A stretch of DNA of 55,135 bases from a virus. A program made the position numbers and the translations under genes. Below are positions 1,688-55,135 of this stretch, one piece after another (the first letter of the stretch is position 1; each line of letters begins with the position of its first letter). The notes below the pieces were generated by a model that was given only the letters and a program-made list of their open reading frames with translations, was not told the origin of the DNA and did not search any database. The DNA lies in UHGV virus genome UHGV-0258472. The stretch is one strand, 5' to 3'.

Positions 1688-1987
1688 TTAAAACTCCGCA
1701 CCAGGTAAGCTACGCGCTTTATTTACCGCATCGTGCTTTAACGATAAACCAGCGTAATAATTCATAATCCCCATATTGCCTGCTGGTATTTCATTATTTT
1801 CTGCCTTTATTCTTAACAACTGGTTTTTAGTGAAAATCCTGTCTCCATCAGTGATATATAACCAGTCGCAGCGCTTACCAACAACAACATGAGATCGGCC
1901 TAAACTGTCTTTAAATTCATAATTAAAGAAAACATCATCTTTAGGCACTTCAACAAAACAGCAAGCAATAAACTTAGCGCTTTTCAT
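1688..1987 (-). CDS. hypothetical protein, possible member of the small paralog family
   Basis: ORF track frame; internal ATG at 1987 preferred because ATG at 2017 lies in a GC hairpin with no SD. Confidence 0.35.
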   Translation of the reverse strand: MKSAKFIACCFVEVPKDDVFFNYEFKDSLGRSHVVVGKRCDWLYITDGDRIFTKNQLLRIKAENNEIPAGNMGIMNYYAGLSLKHDAVNKARSLPGAEF

Positions 1988-2098
1988 AATTACACCATTC
2001 TGATTTGATGGGGCCATCCGGCCCCTTGTTTACTGCATCAAGGATCTTCCACCACACAACCATCTATAACCGCAACATATCGTAGTACATGGCTACCT

Positions 2099-2305
2099 CT
2101 AAATGTCTTCACCGTTGAATACCGCAACCGTTACCAGAGAATAACCATGATTGTAATTGTCGCCGAATATCGTGCGGCCAATAAACATGTCGTTCTCTAT
2201 ATCTCTGCTAGTCACTTTCAACATCTCACCATAGCGAACAACTGTATCGCCAGGCTTGATTGCATTGATGTGTCGTCTTTCGATCCTGTAGTCGTTGCGT
2301 TTCAT
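2099..2305 (-). CDS. hypothetical protein (68 aa)
   Basis: Internal ATG at 2305 with SD ggggag; ORF-track N-terminal extension would cover an intergenic motif. Confidence 0.4.
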   Translation of the reverse strand: MKRNDYRIERRHINAIKPGDTVVRYGEMLKVTSRDIENDMFIGRTIFGDNYNHGYSLVTVAVFNGEDI

Positions 2306-2405
2306 TTTCTTGTCTCCCCTTCCGTCTTCCCTTGACTTATATATAACAAAACGGCACTGCCGAAACAATGCCATTTTGTATACTTTGCGGAGTAGATCAC
2401 GCTTT

Positions 2406-2621
2406 TTATTCATCCTGTCTGAAGGCAACTACAACCTCGCGATCGTCATTCTGAATCAGCCACCAGCCGCGCGCTTTGCTGGGCGCTGCATACCATAAGT
2501 GACCGTAAGTATCCGTAACGACGATAAACGGATTTTTTGGTAATCCGCCTGGTTTTTCCGCTTCGTACTGGCAACCGTCTTCGAAACAATCAAGATCAGA
2601 TCCGTGACACGTTAAAATCAT
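2406..2621 (-). CDS. small protein, paralog family member
   Basis: ATG at 2621 with SD agggg; shares hydrophobic-DD/TD-x-G-x-W motif with neighbours. Confidence 0.45.
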   Translation of the reverse strand: MILTCHGSDLDCFEDGCQYEAEKPGGLPKNPFIVVTDTYGHLWYAAPSKARGWWLIQNDDREVVVAFRQDE

Positions 2622-2624
2622 TTT

Positions 2625-2864
2625 CTACGCCCCTACATACGAAAATGCAGCAAAAGCACCACCACCAGCACGCGCATAAACAAGCGCCGTGCCACACCCC
2701 ATTTTATAAAAGCGCCATAGCTGGCCCTGGTCGTCAGTAATGGCGTGAATATATTCCTGATTCTTTGCGTCAACCAATGCCGCGCCGACTTCGTAGATCT
2801 TGCCATTCTTAAAAAACGCGCTGCATCGTGAATACGTGCATTGATATCTATGATTCCGACTCAT
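2625..2864 (-). CDS. small protein, paralog family member
   Basis: ATG at 2864 with SD aggtgg; G-K-I-Y ... DDxGxLW motif. Confidence 0.45.
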   Translation of the reverse strand: MSRNHRYQCTYSRCSAFFKNGKIYEVGAALVDAKNQEYIHAITDDQGQLWRFYKMGCGTALVYARAGGGAFAAFSYVGA

Positions 2865-2873
2865 AACAACCAC

Positions 2874-3131
2874 CTATTCAGGTTTGCTACCTTCACGCGC
2901 ATGAAGAACAGCGATCTCACGGAAATCATGCACGATGCGATAAATATACAAGCCAGCGGCGTTATTGATATGGATTGCATAAGCGAAATAAACTTTATCG
3001 TCATCGCCAGTTATCGCCATTGCCACATCACCGCACGGTGCGCCGTGGAGTTGAACGCCGCAATAAATCTTCCCTTCTTCGAATCTATTGCGATCGCGCG
3101 TCTGCACTATCTCAAAATATAAATGCTTCAT
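2874..3131 (-). CDS. small protein, paralog family member
   Basis: Internal ATG at 3131 with SD aggggg; G-K-I-Y ... GDDDKVYF motif. Confidence 0.45.
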   Translation of the reverse strand: MKHLYFEIVQTRDRNRFEEGKIYCGVQLHGAPCGDVAMAITGDDDKVYFAYAIHINNAAGLYIYRIVHDFREIAVLHAREGSKPE

Positions 3132-3141
3132 GCTTGCCCCC

Positions 3142-3354
3142 TTAATAACGCACAAAACTAGCGGAAAAATCAGTGCCTGATATTTCGCCACCCCGATAAG
3201 TTGGCATAAATCCCCACACATCCCCACAATCATCAATCAATACAAGCGCCACGCCAACATCACTAATACCATTGCCATAAACGATGTGAACATCATAGAT
3301 TCGCCCAATAGTGAAAACGCTGTCATTGCTTGAATATGAGCATTTAACTTGCAT
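3142..3354 (-). CDS. small protein, paralog family member
   Basis: ATG at 3354 with SD aaggtgg; G-R-I-Y ... DDCGDVWGF motif. Confidence 0.45.
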   Translation of the reverse strand: MQVKCSYSSNDSVFTIGRIYDVHIVYGNGISDVGVALVLIDDCGDVWGFMPTYRGGEISGTDFSASFVRY

Positions 3355-3628
3355 TGTCAGCCACCTTTAAATAATTTTTCGTGTCAATATCTGCCGGATA
3401 CCTGGAAAATTGCGCCAGCCATTGTCCGGTAATGTTTTTCACCAGTGCATAATCAAGATCGCCGCAGTAGAATACCTGGTACATTGTCCCTTCGTTATCA
3501 TCCATAACAAAGACCATCGGATCAGTAGTCGCATTGCGCAGCCTGTGAATCGTGTAAGCCTGGCCAGTAGTGAATTTGTACTCGTTACACGTTGTGCGGC
3601 AAAACATCCGGTCAAAATAGCTTTCCAT
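3344..3628 (-). CDS. hypothetical protein
   Basis: ATG at 3628 overlaps upstream stop (ATGA). Confidence 0.4.
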   Translation of the reverse strand: MESYFDRMFCRTTCNEYKFTTGQAYTIHRLRNATTDPMVFVMDDNEGTMYQVFYCGDLDYALVKNITGQWLAQFSRYPADIDTKNYLKVADNAS

Positions 3629-3879
3629 CAAAAAATCCCCTTATAATCGACCGTGTATTTTGCTATCAGCTTCCATTCACAATAGCTTTCCATGTCGCGC
3701 GGTTGCCAGCCTTTCATGCCTACAGCACCACGCACGCCGTGGCGACGATAATTATCGTTATAGTCAGCTACGCACCACGGCTGAAGCACAAACATGTAAT
3801 TGGCCTCGTTAACCAGGATCGCCACCTGTTTTCCTGTTGCCTTATCTTTCGCCCGGAAATAACTTACCCTGATTTTCAT
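3628..3879 (-). CDS. hypothetical protein (83 aa)
   Basis: ATG at 3879 with SD gaggt. Confidence 0.4.
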   Translation of the reverse strand: MKIRVSYFRAKDKATGKQVAILVNEANYMFVLQPWCVADYNDNYRRHGVRGAVGMKGWQPRDMESYCEWKLIAKYTVDYKGIF

Positions 3880-4090
3880 TTTTAATTACCTCGATCAACA
3901 TTTCTTCTTCCAGGTTAGCCGGACGTTTACGGAATATCCCGGCAAAAACCAGATCATCGAGTAGGTCTTTACGCTTAAATAACCATTCCTTCATTATTAC
4001 CCCGTCATCGCTGCGATATACGACGCCGTTTTTCAAAAAATAAAAAGTGTGGGTATTTGTCTGAAGGTATAGATCTTCGTAAACGTCCAT
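3842..4090 (-). CDS. hypothetical protein (82 aa)
   Basis: ATG at 4090 with SD gaggg. Confidence 0.4.
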   Translation of the reverse strand: MDVYEDLYLQTNTHTFYFLKNGVVYRSDDGVIMKEWLFKRKDLLDDLVFAGIFRKRPANLEEEMLIEVIKNENQGKLFPGER

Positions 4091-4094
4091 GATA

Positions 4095-4322
4095 TTAACC
4101 CTCGACTACTTGCAGCCCGCGCCCCTTATCGCCCACGAAGTCGCCAAGACTGAACGTATACGACCACGCCGGATTGATGTAATGTTCATCAGCACCAGCG
4201 GCAATGAGATCAGCACCGTTAATCATGCAAGTAACATCATCGCTATGAACGACATTAACGACCTTACCAACAACCTGTTTCAATGACGGGTAGCCGTGAT
4301 CGTGCAAGAATTTAACTTTCAT
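4095..4322 (-). CDS. hypothetical protein
   Basis: ORF-track start is TTG; internal ATG at 4322 with purine-rich SD. Confidence 0.35.
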   Translation of the reverse strand: MKVKFLHDHGYPSLKQVVGKVVNVVHSDDVTCMINGADLIAAGADEHYINPAWSYTFSLGDFVGDKGRGLQVVEG

Positions 4323-4590
4323 ATTTCTTTCCCTTGTAAGTGACAGCATCAGTGACCAACAATACCGCCAGCATTTCACCGTCATGTAATGGGTCTGGAA
4401 TAGCAAAAAATATGTCGCTGTTTTTGTCCGGCACTACAACGCGCATATTTCCTTGTTTGTCTTCATGAACAAACCACGGCTTTTCGTGTGGCTCAAACAT
4501 ACCAAAAAGCAATTTAAGATCTATTTCTTCGCCCTTCGTAAATAACGATACATCCGTTGTGGCAATAACTAACGCTTTCTTGTCTGCCAT
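4312..4590 (-). CDS. hypothetical protein
   Basis: In-frame ATGs at 4620 and 4590; 4590 has the better upstream purine run. Confidence 0.4.
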   Translation of the reverse strand: MADKKALVIATTDVSLFTKGEEIDLKLLFGMFEPHEKPWFVHEDKQGNMRVVVPDKNSDIFFAIPDPLHDGEMLAVLLVTDAVTYKGKKYES

Positions 4591-4604
4591 TTTCTTCGCT
4601 CTCA

Positions 4605-4880
4605 TTACTCTGTATCCCATCGTTCAATGCTGATTAAAAAGTCCCGGATAGCGTGGCGCTCGTCGCGCGACGGTTTACGCTTCCGGTAAATTTTAAAATC
4701 AAACCATTCCTTTTCTTGTTCGAAGTCCAGATCGTAAGCAAGCGCCTCAATATATCCGCATTCGTGATACTGGTACGCAACGCCAGCACGAACAAAAAAG
4801 CGGGTTTTATCCCGCTTGTGCTCATAGATACGCATATCAACCCCGTTATGCAGTTGTGTAGCTGTCAACCAGCTTTTCAT
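4605..4880 (-). CDS. hypothetical protein (91 aa)
   Basis: ORF track; ATG at 4880. Confidence 0.4.
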   Translation of the reverse strand: MKSWLTATQLHNGVDMRIYEHKRDKTRFFVRAGVAYQYHECGYIEALAYDLDFEQEKEWFDFKIYRKRKPSRDERHAIRDFLISIERWDTE

Positions 4881-6213: not shown

Positions 6214-6403
6214 TATCGTCACCACGCTTGTAAATTTTGACAGGCTTAATAGGGATGGCTGGCAATTCGCCTTCATTTAACGCGCTTGCCATACCCAATA
6301 TTAAACGCGCTTCCGCACCAGTGACTTTCTTACACCATGCGCCGCCTGTTTTATCTTCGAACAAGATAACAGCAAACTGATCGTTTATTTCCAGCTTATC
6401 CAT
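6203..6403 (-). CDS. hypothetical protein (66 aa)
   Basis: ATG at 6403 overlaps stop of upstream gene (TAATG); SD ggggtga. Confidence 0.4.
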   Translation of the reverse strand: MDKLEINDQFAVILFEDKTGGAWCKKVTGAEARLILGMASALNEGELPAIPIKPVKIYKRGDDNEA

Positions 6404-7125
6404 TATTCACCCCGTGTCACTCGTTTGATCTCGCTTTCCGCGCGGGCCTCTTCTTTGAATAGCTCCGCTATGGCGTCTTCATAAAAAACCCGGTATTTTT
6501 TCCACCATGTTGATCGGCTCACCGGAAAAACAAGCTGATTAACCGCCTGCCGGACGAGATCTACCGGGAAACGCGAGTACCCGCGCCCGCCGCAATGCTG
6601 GCACGTTTTAAACACTGGCATTTCCGCCGCTTCGCTGGCTGTTTTATCCGGTACTTCGCCGCGCCCCTTGCATTGTTTACAATGATTGCGAACTTTCCCA
6701 TGCCCCTTGCATTTTTTGCAAAGGTGTTTTTCTCCGTAGTCGTCAAACGTAAATTTATATCCGCCGCACTCCATACAAGTTTTTTCCGTCGCGGCGCTTT
6801 GGCAATAATCCCGAAACGCGAAAACGGCAACAAGAATAATGAGATCATTGCGTTTGGCCTCGTCCAGTTCCATAACGTATTCATAATCTTTTGCCATAGC
6901 CCTTAAACGCTCTGTAAGCAAAACTACGGCCTTATGTTTTTCGGCTTGTGATAGTTCCATCTTCCCTAAAAAAGCGCTATAGCCAAGCTCTACGCGCGAT
7001 TGCGCCATTCCTGCGGCAGTTAGCGCATCAGTAGTATTAAGCGCATCCGGGGACGTTCCCCGGCTTTCATCTGACAAACGCGGTGATTTCGGGAAGTGGA
7101 ATTTAAGAATTGATTCCAGATTCAT
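6403..7125 (-). CDS. Q-like late antiterminator candidate with four CxxCxGxG (DnaJ-type) zinc-finger repeats
   Basis: ATG at 7125; translation shows CMECGGYK, CKKCKGHG, CKQCKGRG, CQHCGGRG; overall resemblance to lambdoid prophage Q proteins from memory; sits downstream of RusA/NinG as in lambdoid nin regions. Confidence 0.5.
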   Translation of the reverse strand: MNLESILKFHFPKSPRLSDESRGTSPDALNTTDALTAAGMAQSRVELGYSAFLGKMELSQAEKHKAVVLLTERLRAMAKDYEYVMELDEAKRNDLIILVAVFAFRDYCQSAATEKTCMECGGYKFTFDDYGEKHLCKKCKGHGKVRNHCKQCKGRGEVPDKTASEAAEMPVFKTCQHCGGRGYSRFPVDLVRQAVNQLVFPVSRSTWWKKYRVFYEDAIAELFKEEARAESEIKRVTRGE

Positions 7126-37354: not shown

Positions 37355-37540
37355 TTATACGCCATCAAGTAAGAATAAAACTTCCTTGCCTTCTCTCGAT
37401 CTGCATCCAACATAACCGTCACCAACATCATGAAGATACCATGTATCACCATTATCAGCTTTTACAGTAAGATCGTTGATCTCGTAGTCGTCAAACAATG
37501 TAAAAGCGCCCGTGCGGTCAACTACACAAATACCATACAT
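37355..37540 (-). CDS. small protein of the early-region paralog family, located inside the tail cluster
   Basis: ATG 37540 with SD ggaggt; GDTWYLHD / hydrophobic-D-x-G motif shared with 2406..3354 genes. Confidence 0.4.
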   Translation of the reverse strand: MYGICVVDRTGAFTLFDDYEINDLTVKADNGDTWYLHDVGDGYVGCRSREGKEVLFLLDGV

Positions 37541-37551
37541 ATTAACCTCCA

Positions 37552-37905
37552 TCATCTGACGACTTGCTCAAATGTTGCGTTTAGCGTGCATACCGGGCCG
37601 TCTTTCGTCATGCTCCACTTTCTACATACAAAAAGCCTTTGCACCCCGTCAGTGGATGGAGTCCAGTAAAACGCCTCGACCGCGCAACGTGCTCTTAAAA
37701 ATGCGTCAACCTGTAGCGCTACGTTTCCGTCGTCACCGCATCCGGCGCTCGTACCCTTAAAGACCAGCGTATAGCTATCAAGTAAAGGGTTAATCCCTTT
37801 TGTCTGCCTCTGTTCATACCCATCACCCAGTTTAATGACAGACACGTTAGGCTCACTGTTTACGCTGTAGCTTCTTTGTGGTGTCCATCGGAACACTTCA
37901 GGCAT
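37552..37905 (-). CDS. minor tail protein (lambda M-like)
   Basis: 117 aa; N-terminal EVFRWTP motif typical of phage minor tail protein M; ATG 37905. Confidence 0.65.
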   Translation of the reverse strand: MPEVFRWTPQRSYSVNSEPNVSVIKLGDGYEQRQTKGINPLLDSYTLVFKGTSAGCGDDGNVALQVDAFLRARCAVEAFYWTPSTDGVQRLFVCRKWSMTKDGPVCTLNATFEQVVR

Positions 37906-46115: not shown

Positions 46116-46517
46116 TTATGCAACGCGGACACGTACAAAATCAGCCGCTTCAAGGGTTACAGCTTCCTGGCAGAAAGCGAAAACTGTTTCATCAGATGCT
46201 ACCAATTTAAATCCACCTTCACCGATGGTGATGGCAGCGTCTTTGGTGTAAGCACCCTCAGGAAGCAGGATTGCGAATTCGCGGGCTTCTTCTGCGTAGT
46301 CAGCGACCACGGAATGACCAGCCGGAATTGCATCCTCAATACCCAAGCCTTCATGGTATGCCGGATTAACAACATAAATACGGCCTTCGGTATCGGTGGC
46401 GGCAACGAATTTACCAGCCGTCATTTTAACCGGGGTGCCTGGTTTAAGCTCTGCGGCAGATACTGCGGTTTCGGTAATAGATTTACCGTCAATATTCACA
46501 CGACGAAAACGGGCCAT
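46116..46517 (-). CDS. head decoration / capsid-associated protein
   Basis: 133 aa immediately upstream of major capsid; strong SD agaggtg. Confidence 0.45.
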   Translation of the reverse strand: MARFRRVNIDGKSITETAVSAAELKPGTPVKMTAGKFVAATDTEGRIYVVNPAYHEGLGIEDAIPAGHSVVADYAEEAREFAILLPEGAYTKDAAITIGEGGFKLVASDETVFAFCQEAVTLEAADFVRVRVA

Positions 46518-51622: not shown

Positions 51623-52108
51623 TCACACCTCGTCTTCTACTTCCTGGACGATGCGGGCGATCTCTTCTTTCGTGACTTCAACCTGGACGGGCGCTTCTTC
51701 CTTGTTGCCGACGATCTCCTGTGTGACGCGTTCGCCGTATTTGCGCGGCTGAAGTTTTGCCAGTAGCCACTTGCGCGTTTCAATCATTAGTTGGTGGCGT
51801 CGCAACTGATCTTTATCTTCGTTCTCTGCTGCATCAGCCAGATCGATGATTTCATCAGCCAATACCTCGAAGCCGATCTCCTTCGCGCGCGCGTACATGA
51901 TCGAGAATTCCGGTACATCCCTAAACCATTTCAGGATTGTGGAACGGGTAGGCATACCAGGCATTTTCGAAATTTTATTAATACTCTGACCATCCGCCAC
52001 CAGTTCACAGATTTCTAATGCTTTTTCTTCGGTATAACCATGCGGACGGCCCACCTTTTTAGCGGCTGGCTTTTTATCGTCAGCCTTTGCCTTTTTAGTG
52101 CGGGCCAT
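51623..52108 (-). CDS. terminase small subunit
   Basis: 161 aa basic N-terminal HTH-like region, immediately upstream of terminase large subunit; ATG 52108 with SD gagaggtg. Confidence 0.7.
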   Translation of the reverse strand: MARTKKAKADDKKPAAKKVGRPHGYTEEKALEICELVADGQSINKISKMPGMPTRSTILKWFRDVPEFSIMYARAKEIGFEVLADEIIDLADAAENEDKDQLRRHQLMIETRKWLLAKLQPRKYGERVTQEIVGNKEEAPVQVEVTKEEIARIVQEVEDEV

Positions 52109-52118
52109 ATTTCACCTC

Positions 52119-52202
52119 TCAATATTTATTGATGATATATACGCAAGCAACAAAACTTGCACAGTATGTTAATACTTCCAACCAGTCGAATAATTCTTTC
52201 AT
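52119..52202 (-). CDS. micro-gene 10 of array: MKELFDWLEVLTYCASFVACVYIINKY
   Basis: ATG 52202 with SD aaggtga; in-frame upstream ATGs could extend it. Confidence 0.35.
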   Translation of the reverse strand: MKELFDWLEVLTYCASFVACVYIINKY

Positions 52203-52270
52203 TGTTGCCATCACCTTTACTTTACTTGCTGAATTTAGGAAGCGCATAAATTGCGCGTCCAAGCTATAAC

Positions 52271-52339
52271 CTATTGAGTTAGCGCGGTCATGGTAAGAAC
52301 AATAGCAACAATCAGGAAAAAGAAATCAAGCCATTTCAT
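52271..52339 (-). CDS. micro-gene 9 of array: MKWLDFFFLIVAIVLTMTALTQ
   Basis: ATG 52339 with SD aggag. Confidence 0.4.
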   Translation of the reverse strand: MKWLDFFFLIVAIVLTMTALTQ

Positions 52340-52355
52340 TTTTAACTCCTGCGAT

Positions 52356-52427
52356 TCAGTTAACGCTTAAAAGCACCGCAACGATGACGATCACTATAAT
52401 CATGCAAAAGAAGTCTGCTTCCCTCAT
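52356..52427 (-). CDS. micro-gene 8 of array: MREADFFCMIIVIVIVAVLLSVN
   Basis: ATG 52427 overlaps upstream stop (ATGA). Confidence 0.4.
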   Translation of the reverse strand: MREADFFCMIIVIVIVAVLLSVN

Positions 52428-52504
52428 CTTTTTAACCCTCGATAAAAATCAACGGCAATTACTGTAATAACAGCCACCAGCAATAGCATTTCGTATGCGT
52501 TCAT
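52424..52504 (-). CDS. micro-gene 7 of array: MNAYEMLLLVAVITVIAVDFYRGLKR
   Basis: ATG 52504 overlaps upstream stop (ATGA). Confidence 0.4.
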   Translation of the reverse strand: MNAYEMLLLVAVITVIAVDFYRGLKR

Positions 52505-52599
52505 TTGATGCTACCCATAACAAGACCAATGATGATGATTATGGCGACAATGCCTAACATCATTCCGCACATAATCGCCAGTAATTCGAATATATCCAT
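52501..52599 (-). CDS. micro-gene 6 of array: MDIFELLAIMCGMMLGIVAIIIIIGLVMGSIK
   Basis: ATG 52599 with SD aggtga; the ORF-track 67-aa version is a non-ATG upstream extension. Confidence 0.4.
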   Translation of the reverse strand: MDIFELLAIMCGMMLGIVAIIIIIGLVMGSIK

Positions 52600-52607
52600 G
52601 CCGTCAC

Positions 52608-52682
52608 CTATACAACATTCTTCCACCAGAAATAGATAATGACGGCGACCAACGACCACCAGATGAGATCGTAAATATTCAT
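52608..52682 (-). CDS. micro-gene 5 of array: MNIYDLIWWSLVAVIIYFWWKNVV
   Basis: ATG 52682 with SD-like aaggta. Confidence 0.4.
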   Translation of the reverse strand: MNIYDLIWWSLVAVIIYFWWKNVV

Positions 52683-52693
52683 GGTGAATACCT

Positions 52694-52768
52694 TCAGCTT
52701 TCAATGAATATCATGATCGCCAGCCATACAGCGACGCAGGCAGAAAGGATAATGAGCGGGTCAATCAT
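52694..52768 (-). CDS. micro-gene 4 of array: MIDPLIILSACVAVWLAIMIFIES
   Basis: ATG 52768 with SD ggtga, 4 nt after upstream stop. Confidence 0.4.
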   Translation of the reverse strand: MIDPLIILSACVAVWLAIMIFIES

Positions 52769-52772
52769 ATTT

Positions 52773-52847
52773 TCACCATAGCCTGTAAATGTTCACGCCA
52801 ATACCTATGATGAGCACAAATAACCAAATGAGATCGTAGGCATTCAT
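52773..52847 (-). CDS. micro-gene 3 of array: MNAYDLIWLFVLIIGIGVNIYRLW
   Basis: ATG 52847 overlaps upstream stop (ATGA). Confidence 0.4.
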   Translation of the reverse strand: MNAYDLIWLFVLIIGIGVNIYRLW

Positions 52848-52939
52848 GATTTGCTTTTTACAGTTATCAGTACAGCTATAATAAAACACACCAGGAATAC
52901 AGAAATGCCGATCAATCCGGCAATGATATAATCATCCAT
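52844..52939 (-). CDS. micro-gene 2 of array: MDDYIIAGLIGISVFLVCFIIAVLITVKSKS
   Basis: ATG 52939, 2 nt after upstream stop. Confidence 0.4.
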   Translation of the reverse strand: MDDYIIAGLIGISVFLVCFIIAVLITVKSKS

Positions 52940-52941
52940 AA

Positions 52942-53031
52942 TCAATCCTGCATAGACATAGCCACCAGAAACATGCAAAGAATGAATCCAGCCGCCATAC
53001 CGCCTATAAACGTTAATATTGATGCAATCAT
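52942..53031 (-). CDS. micro-gene 1 of array: MIASILTFIGGMAAGFILCMFLVAMSMQD
   Basis: ATG 53031 with SD ggggtga, 2 nt after stop of 53034..53576. Confidence 0.4.
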   Translation of the reverse strand: MIASILTFIGGMAAGFILCMFLVAMSMQD

Positions 53032-53033
53032 AA

Positions 53034-53576
53034 TCACCCCCGTTTAAAGCTCATAACACGAGGTACAAGCGCTTCTTTTGCTTTCGGCTTACGTTTGCCT
53101 TTCTTAGCTGGTTTTTTCTCTTCTTTCGGCTGTTCTGCCTGTTCTAATGCCTGCTCAACGACTTCAGCCGCCTGCATTGCTGCAACCTGTGCTTCGTTTG
53201 ATTCTGCCAGGATAGGGAAAAATGCATCAAAGATGCGGCCTACCATGTAAGCGTAAGTCTCATTCGCCGGATGAGATGGATCAGTGGTAGCCACGACGCC
53301 TACATCACTTAAAACATGGAATGTGGTGTGAGCGCATTCATGTACCAGCGTTCCTAACTCATTGTCGAATACTGCGATCACGTAGAAGTTACCGCCTTTC
53401 TCACCAGTGCAAGTAAGCGTCAATCCTCCTGCCAGTTCGAAATCAGGCTCAATTGGAATTCCTGCCTTTTCGCAAAATTCATAAAACATCTCGCGGGTCG
53501 GGCAAAAGAAAACGGTTGTATGCTCAAAGAGCGGTACTTTGAATTGAGGCAATTTAATGCCTTTAGCCTTAGCCAT
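53034..53576 (-). CDS. hypothetical protein with HExxH motif (HECAHTTFH) and Lys-rich C-terminal tail
   Basis: ATG 53576 with SD aggag; possible zincin-like metal site; function unknown. Confidence 0.5.
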   Translation of the reverse strand: MAKAKGIKLPQFKVPLFEHTTVFFCPTREMFYEFCEKAGIPIEPDFELAGGLTLTCTGEKGGNFYVIAVFDNELGTLVHECAHTTFHVLSDVGVVATTDPSHPANETYAYMVGRIFDAFFPILAESNEAQVAAMQAAEVVEQALEQAEQPKEEKKPAKKGKRKPKAKEALVPRVMSFKRG

Positions 53577-53854
53577 CAGAATAATCTCCTATTCTGAAAA
53601 ATATAACCCCCGCAAAACTCGACACCGCAGGGAGTGAAAACAGCTATAAAACACTGAAAACGGCGCTTAATCAGTACCGTTTCCAGAATTTTATAAAATT
53701 GGTGAATGGCGCTTTCTTCTACCCAGGTAGCGCCGACCTGTTAATGGGACTGTTGATCCGGTATTACGTGTTTTTGACTTTTCCGCCGTCGCTCGCGGGA
53801 AGGATTGGCCCGGTTATGGCTGGCTGGCGGAAACGGCGACACGTCCACGCGCTG

Positions 53855-54325
53855 TTATTCTTTGCGTATGCACTGCGTCTTGATGTAGTCCTGCAATCCG
53901 GTGATCTTCGCGTCTTTCTCTTTTAGTTGTTCTCTGAGGGATAGATAAGCCGATTCAGCGTCGGGAGTGAGTCTACAGGCGGCTCCATCAATGCTGCTGG
54001 CGGTTCCGGTGGCGTCTGACACTCGCACGGGTATTGCGTTGACGTGCAACCGGATAGCACCGCTATCAATACCAGCACGCAGATCAGCAATGTCAGATCT
54101 GATAGCTTTAATTTCATCGTGATACCTCTTATCAAGTTTTGACAGTTCGGCGTTTCGCTCCTTCATCTGCTGAATAGTGTTACTTGCTGTTTTTAGTGCG
54201 CCCTGCGTAGTAGTTAGCTCGCTTTGCATTGTGTTTATCACTGACTGGCAGTGACTAAGCGCGGCAACAAGCCCAACAACGACACAAACGATAGCGGCGA
54301 TGATTAACGTCTTCACCTTGTCCAT
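53855..54325 (-). CDS. Rz-like i-spanin
   Basis: N-terminal TM anchor, coiled-coil periplasmic domain; ATG 54325 with SD ggggtga; follows endolysin. Confidence 0.7.
53923..54117 (-). CDS. Rz1-like o-spanin lipoprotein embedded in Rz in the +1 frame
   Basis: ATG 54117 with SD aagaggt; lipobox LSGC, Pro-rich mature region; fully nested within Rz. Confidence 0.65.
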   Translation of the reverse strand: MKLKLSDLTLLICVLVLIAVLSGCTSTQYPCECQTPPEPPAALMEPPVDSLPTLNRLIYPSENN

Positions 54326-54804
54326 GTTTCACCCCATTCGCAAACGGCATATTCAACATCACGGCGGTTAACCAGGCCTTGCCACTTCTTACCGCCAGCG
54401 TATACCCAGCGTTTAAGCTGTGCGCACGCCTCTGATTTCTTGCCGTCATTGAGTAGCTTCAATAAGGTTGATGTTTTGAAGTTGGTAGCGCCTACGTTAT
54501 AGGCGAATGAATAAAGCGCCGCGCGGGTAAAATCTGATATTTCGACTTTAATATATGGGTCAATCGCTTTTGCGGTTTTGTGGAGATCCTTGTTTAACAA
54601 AGCATCGCATTCTGATTGCGTGTAAGTCTTACCAAGCATGATGTCTTTTCCGGTGTGACCATAGCAAACTGTCCATACGCCGATAACATCACGATAGGGA
54701 TCGTACTCCACGCCCTCTAATGGTTTAACCATCACCGCCGCAATAGCGATCGCCCCACCAGCCGCCGCAGCAATAATCTTATTCTTCAGCGATTGGCTAA
54801 TCAT
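54313..54804 (-). CDS. SAR-endolysin (lysozyme with N-terminal signal-anchor-release domain)
   Basis: N-terminal Ala/Gly-rich weakly hydrophobic segment followed by E-x8-D-x5-T-type lysozyme catalytic region ([22 protein letters not shown]); start set at ATG 54804 just after holin stop. Confidence 0.8.
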
Positions 54805-54805
54805 G

Positions 54806-55006
54806 TTACTTATTCCCCATTCGCGCGTCGTGTTCCTCTTGCGCTCGCTTGTTCTCCTGTGATTTGAAGTAATAATTAACGGCAAATGTGCCTATGGTTG
54901 ATAAGATACCAACAAAGACGGCAATATCATTGATGGTTATCGCGCCGAAAAAAGCAGTTACGGCCCCAGTCACATACGCGCACGCCTCCCGTATTCTGTC
55001 GAACAT
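54806..55006 (-). CDS. class II holin (pinholin-like, two TM segments)
   Basis: 66 aa, two hydrophobic segments, charged C-terminus; ATG 55006 with SD ggaggt; pairs with a SAR endolysin. Confidence 0.65.
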
Positions 55007-55026
55007 AGATTTACCTCCAACAAAGC

Positions 55027-55049
55027 AAAAACCCGGCGCGGTGCCGGGT
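55027..55049 (-). terminator. rho-independent terminator immediately upstream of holin (tR'-like)
   Basis: cccggcaccgcgccggg hairpin followed by tttttgctttg on minus strand, ~20 nt before holin SD. Confidence 0.5.
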
Positions 55050-55135
55050 AATTACAATTTCGCATTGTTAGGAAATATTTTAATCTATTTGTTTTTTATG
55101 CGCGATTATGTCTACAGTTTCCTGATTAACAGACC

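Follow-up and report, generated by a model that had tools for sequence, protein, structure and literature searches.

What are the many small genes that lie between the late antiterminator gene and the lysis genes of a temperate coliphage, and do any of them belong together? The question is raised by the virus genome UHGV-0258472, whose 55,135 bp (the whole stretch of DNA analysed, here called the window) represent the complete, circularly permuted genome of an mEp021-like (mEpimmI) temperate coliphage. The mEpimmI phages are a group of Nus-dependent non-lambdoid phages (PMC11893012), and the record nearest to the window is Escherichia phage MagusPhagus (92% identity across 82% of the first 6 kb), followed in similarity by mEp010, mEp044, mEp554, mEp013, mEp021 and mEp515. 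About 26 small genes are tightly packed on the minus strand over ~6.3 kb, spanning the region from the Q antiterminator gene to the holin gene. Most anti-defence factors and defence triggers are currently being discovered among small accessory phage proteins of this kind, the majority of which are without a fold or family assignment. Comparison of the sequences indicates that six genes of this array form a lineage-specific cluster of paralogs, five of them contiguous at 2406-3631 and a probable sixth at 872-1120, all on the minus strand.

Members of the family

The open reading frames (ORFs) named in an original prediction for this region were all found where it had placed them, every one on the minus strand, and the peptide strings that it had quoted (GKIY, GKIY and GRIY; GDDDKVYF, DDCGDVWGF, DDQGQLWRF and DTYGHLWY) are present. 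When the family model was iterated to convergence on the local data, exactly six members were obtained from the window, with products of 70-95 amino acids (aa) that are mostly acidic (isoelectric point, pI, of 4.1-4.9 in four of the six). In the order of transcription, the contiguous run begins with g3344 (3344-3631; 94-95 aa; motifs FCRTTC, KFTTGQAY and VFVMDDNEG), followed by g3142 (3142-3354; 70 aa), the putative minimal barrel, for which the structural model was computed, by g2874 (2874-3131; 85 aa; motifs RFEEGKIY and AMAITGDDDKVYF), by g2625 (2625-2864; 79 aa; motifs QCTYSRCSAFFKNGKIY and HAITDDQGQLWRF), which with a pI of 9.1 is the sole basic member, and by g2406 (2406-2621; 71 aa; motifs LTCHGSDLDCFEDGCQY and FIVVTDTYGHLWY), the most divergent of the run. 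Four unrelated genes lie between the run and g872 (872-1120; 82 aa), which combines a barrel-like N-terminal half (KIRCKGEYPGFTTGHEY and MNTIDDDGDS) with a different C-terminal half, carries the acidic tail EHEDDEDD and has a net charge of -15. Five phages share the TTG start of g872 together with the GGAG that precedes it; the annotation of MagusPhagus holds only a 46-aa, ATG-started fragment of this gene.

The claim that the four genes from g2406 to g3142 are a tandem run of diverged paralogs is borne out by phmmer, by profile-profile comparison and by leave-one-out searches, while two members had been missed, namely g3344, which adjoins the run, and probably g872. One may ask whether the common motifs merely reflect chance likeness among unrelated or spurious short ORFs. 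The proteins are short, their pairwise identity in the six-way alignment is only 19-34%, and several pairwise E-values exceed 0.1: phmmer gave 4e-5 for 2625 against 3142 and 0.002-0.3 for other pairs (g3344 against g3142 0.002, g872 against g3142 0.011). In the six-way alignment, F14, G17 and Y20 are invariant (F-x-x-G-x-x-Y), D-D-x-G is near-invariant and a Cys in the first strand is found in five of the six, and the composite motif occurs in four adjacent ORFs as against 0.008 expected from shuffles (a post hoc test). For the profile-profile comparison, 103 orthologs from a profile search were sorted into sub-families, and hhalign gave P=2.2e-5 for g2874 with g2625, P=3e-5 for g2625 with g3142, P=8e-4 for g872 with g3142 and P=2e-3 for g3344 with g3142. 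Both this comparison and the multiple alignment had been suggested by the original prediction; the motifs of g3344 and g872 align in register with the family.

The divergent g2406 was recovered at E=1e-4 among 1112 sequences by a hidden Markov model (HMM) that contained no g2406 sequence, the next ORF of the window following at E=1.8. Comparison of the family with the g2406 sub-family by hhalign gave P=1.8e-4 over 42 columns, with the Cys, F..G..Y and D-x-G-x-x-W in register. In the strictest test, HMMs from which a whole sub-family had been left out and all chimeras excluded were run against all 989 ORFs of the window, and returned 3142 at 4.6e-7, 2625 at 6.5e-6, 3344 at 6.5e-4 and 2874 at 0.0099. 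These profile and leave-one-out statistics, a confident structural model built from the joint alignment, the conservation of hundreds of orthologs, their ratios of non-synonymous to synonymous substitution (dN/dS) of 0.02-0.29 and the recurrence of the family unit elsewhere as intragenic tandem repeats all speak against coincidence, which is refuted for the core of 2625, 3142, 2874 and 3344 and is extremely improbable for the set as a whole. Membership of this core is solid, that of g2406 likely. For g872 it is probable, because its N-terminal half matches g3142 in phmmer and in hhalign, its motifs are in register and natural recombinants with other members exist.

The original prediction had drawn the family more widely, as one under diversifying selection that included 1688-1987 as a loose member and 37355-37540 as a copy relocated into the tail cluster. 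The 37355 product indeed has a C-terminal half that is predicted to be beta-rich, and its motif L-x-V-x-x-D-N-G-D-x-W can be aligned to the DDxG turn of the family, yet hhalign gave P=0.03 for merely 11 columns around DNGDxW. The family HMMs returned 37355 at E=1.3-7.6, and the protein belongs to a separate family, phrog_3249, at 1.7e-21. Its start is more likely at 37552, as in its 65-aa homologs, and an AlphaFold2 model of 37355-37552 from a shallow alignment (predicted local distance difference test, pLDDT, 59) was of too low confidence to judge the fold. No family model detected 1688-1987, which has no PHROG match either, and dN/dS values are far below 1. At the level of sequence, this wider family is largely refuted, and we regard it as very unlikely.

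Several further ORFs were considered as hidden members and rejected. For g1431, g1104 and g4312 no profile gave significance, the pairwise phmmer value of g1431 against g2625 being 0.008, and 46116-46517 reached 0.0015 in one leave-one-out model, with E>5 under proper family models. In the leave-one-out searches g4312 (4312-4620, minus strand; phrog_33175), with the similar pattern LFTKGEEI...FVHEDKQGN, repeatedly ranked first among the non-members (E 0.02-0.6), and it could be very distantly related to the barrel family.

Predicted fold and related phage domains

Prediction of g3142 by AlphaFold2 from a 40-sequence family alignment gave a model with a pLDDT of 89.1 and a predicted template modelling score of 0.74. 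It is all-beta, with six strands (b1 2-8, b2 19-26, b3 35-40, b4 46-48, b5 55-60 and b6 63-69), of which b1 and b2 are joined by a loop of ten residues. According to this model, each paralog would be an SH3-like beta-barrel of ~60 residues and six strands, in which the motif [VI]-[KR]-C would lie on b1, the segment F-x-x-G-x-x-Y would enter b2 after the long b1-b2 loop, and a hydrophobic b3 would close in the D-D-x-G-x-x-W/F turn. As this one high-confidence model was built on the joint alignment, a common fold for all members is plausible. A Foldseek search of BFVD returned many uncharacterised small proteins of enterobacterial siphophages (best E 1.4e-3, TM-scores up to 0.72-0.75).

Domain collections yielded little for the window proteins. 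A Pfam scan of ten candidates gave nothing meaningful, and no protein of the window passes any Pfam threshold. The paralogs g3142 and g2625, and none of the other four, match phrog_31142 (7.8e-7 and 1e-5); g3142, g2625 and g3344 show weak matches to phrog_4927, and g872 falls into phrog_25234, while g2406 and g2874 have no PHROG match. Sequence searches of the PDB with the family profile gave chance hits, the best being a TFIIIA zinc-finger-like C-x4-C...F...Y..H (E=0.39), which was dismissed because the paralogs do not share its Cys and His residues.

By its present definition the family is a narrow one: among 1.84 billion representatives searched exhaustively with hmmsearch, no more than 29 proteins reached E<=1e-3. 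Five of these (P0107, P0109, P0114, P0120 and P0121) contain two to five tandem copies of the unit VKCI..G...LT.GK.Y.V....I.DD.G........RF. Where enough flanking sequence is available, the repeat proteins are encoded in small-gene arrays of phages, with replication genes next to P0114 and P0120; the contig of P0107, at 1.4 kb, is too short for gene context. P0109 carries two family repeats and a C-terminal membrane anchor, and the same T1-like metagenomic small-gene array encodes a homolog of Gp54 (L018 1365-1559, 5001-5639), a phage protein discussed below.

Two Pfam domains are connected to the family through these relatives. The first repeat of P0107 is a genuine relative, as the repeats score E 1e-9 to 1e-14 against the iterated family HMM, and P0107 also matches DUF6501 (PF20111) at 1.3e-10 and 41.4 bits, the cut-off being 23.8. 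Because the P0107 repeats match both, the link between the family and DUF6501, a domain of unknown function, is a transitive one; no window protein matches DUF6501 directly. DUF7244 (PF23896), of the SH3 clan, is matched by P0107 at 8.9e-6 with 26.1 bits, just under the 27-bit cut-off. The family motifs line up with its pattern M-K-V-K-C ... G-x-x-Y ... h-K-I-x-D-E-x-G, and hhalign of the iterated family against DUF7244 gave P=4.3e-4 at a probability of 34% over 45 columns, with VKC, G..Y and D-E-x-G aligned. A DUF7244 protein of Escherichia phage Bas11 (bas11_0041) is matched by the family HMM at E=0.015. Judged from these profiles, the family may best be seen as a divergent branch of the SH3-like phage domains DUF7244 and DUF6501. 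Bas11 encodes five small proteins with weak matches to the family HMM (E 1e-3 to 0.015; L003 33759-33929, 42369-42554, 45147-45338, 47216-47653 and 37578-37943), and one of them is a DUF7244 protein that adjoins the holin gene.

In 188 of 522 Drexlerviridae, DUF7244 has been described as a standalone SH3 protein that is encoded beside the lysis cassette, upstream of the holin gene (PMC13164509). The family shows a weak in-register similarity to it and likewise lies upstream of a lysis cassette. The paralogs might thus be auxiliary proteins of the lysis module, modulating the endolysin or binding the cell wall as standalone SH3-like domains in the way hypothesised for DUF7244. The array of the window is indeed followed directly by a holin-endolysin-spanin cassette, whose endolysin is 45% identical to that of Bas11; the holins of the two phages are unrelated, and the evidence for a shared ancestry of the cassette with that of T1-like phages is not decisive. 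DUF7244 proteins differ from the family in being shorter (56 aa), single-copy and immediately beside the holin gene, whereas the members lie 0.9-3.6 kb from the holin with other genes between, and even g872, the closest, is ~0.9 kb and five genes away. The function of DUF7244 is equally unknown, its role in lysis being itself just a hypothesis. Moreover, no signal peptide or membrane segment was seen by eye that would offer the proteins a route to the periplasm, mEp021 is viable with no copy in the region examined, and relatives in other phages are found among replication or early small genes and not among lysis genes. A role in lysis consequently appears unlikely.

Gain, loss and recombination of copies

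Copy number in the region between Q and the holin gene varies widely among related phages: there are six copies in the window and in MagusPhagus, five in mEp044, four in mEp010, two each in mEp554 and mEp013, and none in mEp021 for the region examined. Two sub-families without a counterpart in the window contribute to the count for mEp044, and one of these is placed upstream of Q. Sub-families not present in the window are represented by mEp044_46 (L008 7752-8072) and mEp010_62 (L006 4886-5101), one of which is located upstream of Q, next to a RusA-like gene that lies on its other side, so that the family extends beyond the interval between Q and the holin gene. Among 5426 complete E. coli genomes, the five-gene block was detected in 27, and only in two over at least 80% of its length.

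Deletion fusions and swaps of half-domains are common, with junctions at the two conserved motifs (F..G..Y and DDxGD). Thus, mEp013_60 (L009 4020-4322) consists of the N-terminal part of g2625 and the C-terminal part of g150, a gene near the holin-proximal end of the array, and P0116 and P0118 join N-terminal parts of g1104 or g1431 to the C-terminal part of g872. The natural chimera P0011 unites the N-terminal half of g3344 with the C-terminal half of g872; in P0011, P0089, P0101 and P0108 alike, N-terminal halves of other putative barrels precede a g872 C-terminal half. Between the paralogs of the window no DNA repeats were found apart from an 18-nt microhomology that encodes I-D-D-x-G-D. 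This lack of shared DNA similarity suggests that the duplications are old, or that copies have been imported. We take the family to be dispensable cargo of the array between Q and the holin gene, in which copies are lost by deletion fusion and halves are swapped between paralogs.

The diversifying selection postulated by the original prediction left no gene-wide signal. Nei-Gojobori dN/dS values between orthologs of sister phages are 0.02-0.29 for the family (0.02-0.11 for g2625), like those of neighbouring array genes (0.03-0.45) and of Q (0.05-0.16). The family genes are thus real genes under purifying selection, and what makes them diverse is the long-standing divergence of the paralogs, the gain and loss of genes and exchange among the copies by recombination, instead of diversifying selection. 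As variation among g3142 orthologs clusters at residues 29-38 and 42-46, which correspond to the b2-b3 loop and the DDxG turn, selection at specific sites is still conceivable. At this locus one can follow a domain of this kind as it multiplies, is reshuffled and disappears inside one phage lineage.

In some relatives (P0026, P0060 and P0074) another frame is used for the C-terminal third of the g2625 protein, resulting in a hydrophobic tail (…RRLFMRVLVVVLLLRFRM). The frame is that of an ORF of the window, 2633-2806 on the minus strand, which overlaps g2625 from within. Either a frameshift variant or an artefact of annotation might account for the tail.

Possible functions and genomic setting

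Taken together, these data make it reasonably probable that the locus is a lineage-specific tandem cluster of SH3-like barrels, dispensable and recombining, kept under purifying selection and serving as putative protein-binding modules. For the individual proteins, a role as small accessory modules that bind other proteins is the most likely one. Each barrel would engage a different host or phage protein, components of defence or host takeover being candidate targets, and the variable b2-b3 loop, the DDxG turn and the C-terminal extensions (the acidic tail of g872, for instance) would determine its specificity. We favour this role because of the acidity of four of the six proteins, their dispensability, the presence of variable loops on a conserved core and the lack of an export signal by eye, which suggests a cytoplasmic location, and because the sole characterised analogue binds a protein.

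This analogue is Gp54 of Escherichia phage Bas11 (PDB 9AXB; Pfam PF25180, "Phage antiviral trigger protein Gp54"), a six-stranded barrel of rare topology with a prominent b1-b2 loop (PMC11578894). Gp54 binds its protein partner directly and acts as a trigger of the CapRelSJ46 defence system, its native function being unknown; activation of CapRelSJ46 is known for Bas11 Gp54 alone, and even close homologues fail to trigger it (PMC11578894). Like the members of the family, Gp54 is small (66 aa), non-essential and encoded within a small-gene array. The g3142 model shares with it the small six-stranded barrel and the prominent b1-b2 loop, and Gp54 has an F-x-x-G motif that enters b2 at a position equivalent to that of the family. 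Gp54 differs, however, in lacking the DDxG-x-x-W turn and the Cys on b1, and it is a single-copy protein of a virulent T1-like phage, whereas the family comprises six paralogs in a temperate one. None of the window proteins matches PF25180 at E<=1, and the iterated family HMM misses Gp54.

Several observations weigh against the protein-binding interpretation or parts of it. In the leave-one-subfamily-out test, g2406 scored a marginal 0.037 and g872 a non-significant 0.17. Only a single member was modelled, on the joint alignment, and its fold is extended from there to the other five. A Foldseek search of the PDB with the g3142 model gave no significant match and did not recover Gp54, and there is no sequence homology between the family and Gp54, hhalign giving P=0.37 with just the F-x-x-G segment aligned. 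As neither structure search nor sequence connects the two, we speak of the "same fold", as predicted by the model, and not of membership in the Gp54 family. Every PHROG matched by family members is annotated as of unknown function, and the paralogs are split over several PHROGs. Furthermore, it was by eye alone that the proteins were judged to have no evident signal peptide or membrane segment, and the basic g2625 means that a uniform mode of binding is not guaranteed.

The charge of the proteins also bears on a different possibility. Beta-barrels of such small size often bind RNA or DNA. The paralogs could therefore be small nucleic-acid-binding regulators, of an SH3, Sm or OB-like barrel type, that tune late transcription or translation beside Q; the location of the genes between Q and the late genes and the basic g2625 would fit such a role. 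Four of the six are strongly acidic, however, in particular g872 with its high negative charge, and no match to a known nucleic-acid-binding family was obtained in Pfam or the PDB. A copy number between 0 and 6 that is evidently dispensable is likewise at odds with such regulators, and we consider them quite improbable. Like the lysis role and the wider family, this explanation is less well supported than protein binding.

Within the protein-binding interpretation, the host-takeover or anti-defence function put forward by the original prediction is plausible. A more specific version would see the six barrels as diversified inhibitors or decoys directed against different host immunity sensors, for example the zinc-finger-like sensor domains of CapRel-type toxin-antitoxin defences, with new specificities arising from half swaps at the DDxG hinge. 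We regard this version as rather doubtful. If it were true, Gp54-type barrels would constitute a general class of phage proteins, overlooked so far, that counter host defence or trigger it.

The small phage beta-barrel was already known as a domain type, and the cluster represents its tandem expansion within this phage lineage. The analysis ties "hypothetical" genes of a gut-prevalent coliphage group, tentatively, to the rare Gp54-type barrel and to the DUF7244 and DUF6501 domains. What it provides is a short list of candidates for panels of defence systems, and not a new kind of system.

The array that harbours the family is bounded upstream by a Q-like late antiterminator gene (6403-7125, minus strand), assigned from the annotation of the MagusPhagus and mEp021 orthologs, and downstream by the holin gene (54806-55006, minus strand). 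It begins at the Q stop codon without an intergenic gap, wraps across the ends of the window and stops just before the holin gene, so that all family genes come after Q and before the holin gene. The designation of the array as early in the original prediction is accordingly only provisional. A terminator-like, GC-rich hairpin followed by a T-run is found at 55031-55049 on the minus strand, just upstream of the ribosome-binding site of the holin gene, and corresponds by position to TERM_5, a terminator annotated in mEp021. Consensus scans, which are uninformative for a late promoter, detected nothing promoter-like in 52000-55135 and, within the array, weak sites only, and Rfam and tRNA scans of the whole window gave no matches.

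Two other features of the array deserve mention. The ORF 3842-4090 (minus strand; 82 aa, 249 nt), which lies within this regulatory small-gene array and has no PHROG match, appears by its size, its position and an amino-acid identity of 96% to an mEp021 ORF to correspond to mEp021_41 as its ortholog. The annotation of mEp021_41 is that of a virion structural protein; its product is reported to have been detected in virions, and the gene to be conserved in all mEpimmI genomes (PMC11893012). At the holin-proximal end, a second trio of tandem paralogs encodes proteins of the type EDGVY...G(D/E)... (55112-55135 plus 1-153, 150-332 and 333-557, all on the minus strand). Of these, g150 and g333 each match phrog_15318 (7.5e-33 and 2.2e-7) and one another in phmmer (2e-6), and the gene that wraps across the window ends (MNEIEDGVYSHALFG...) looks, by eye, like a third copy of the same type.

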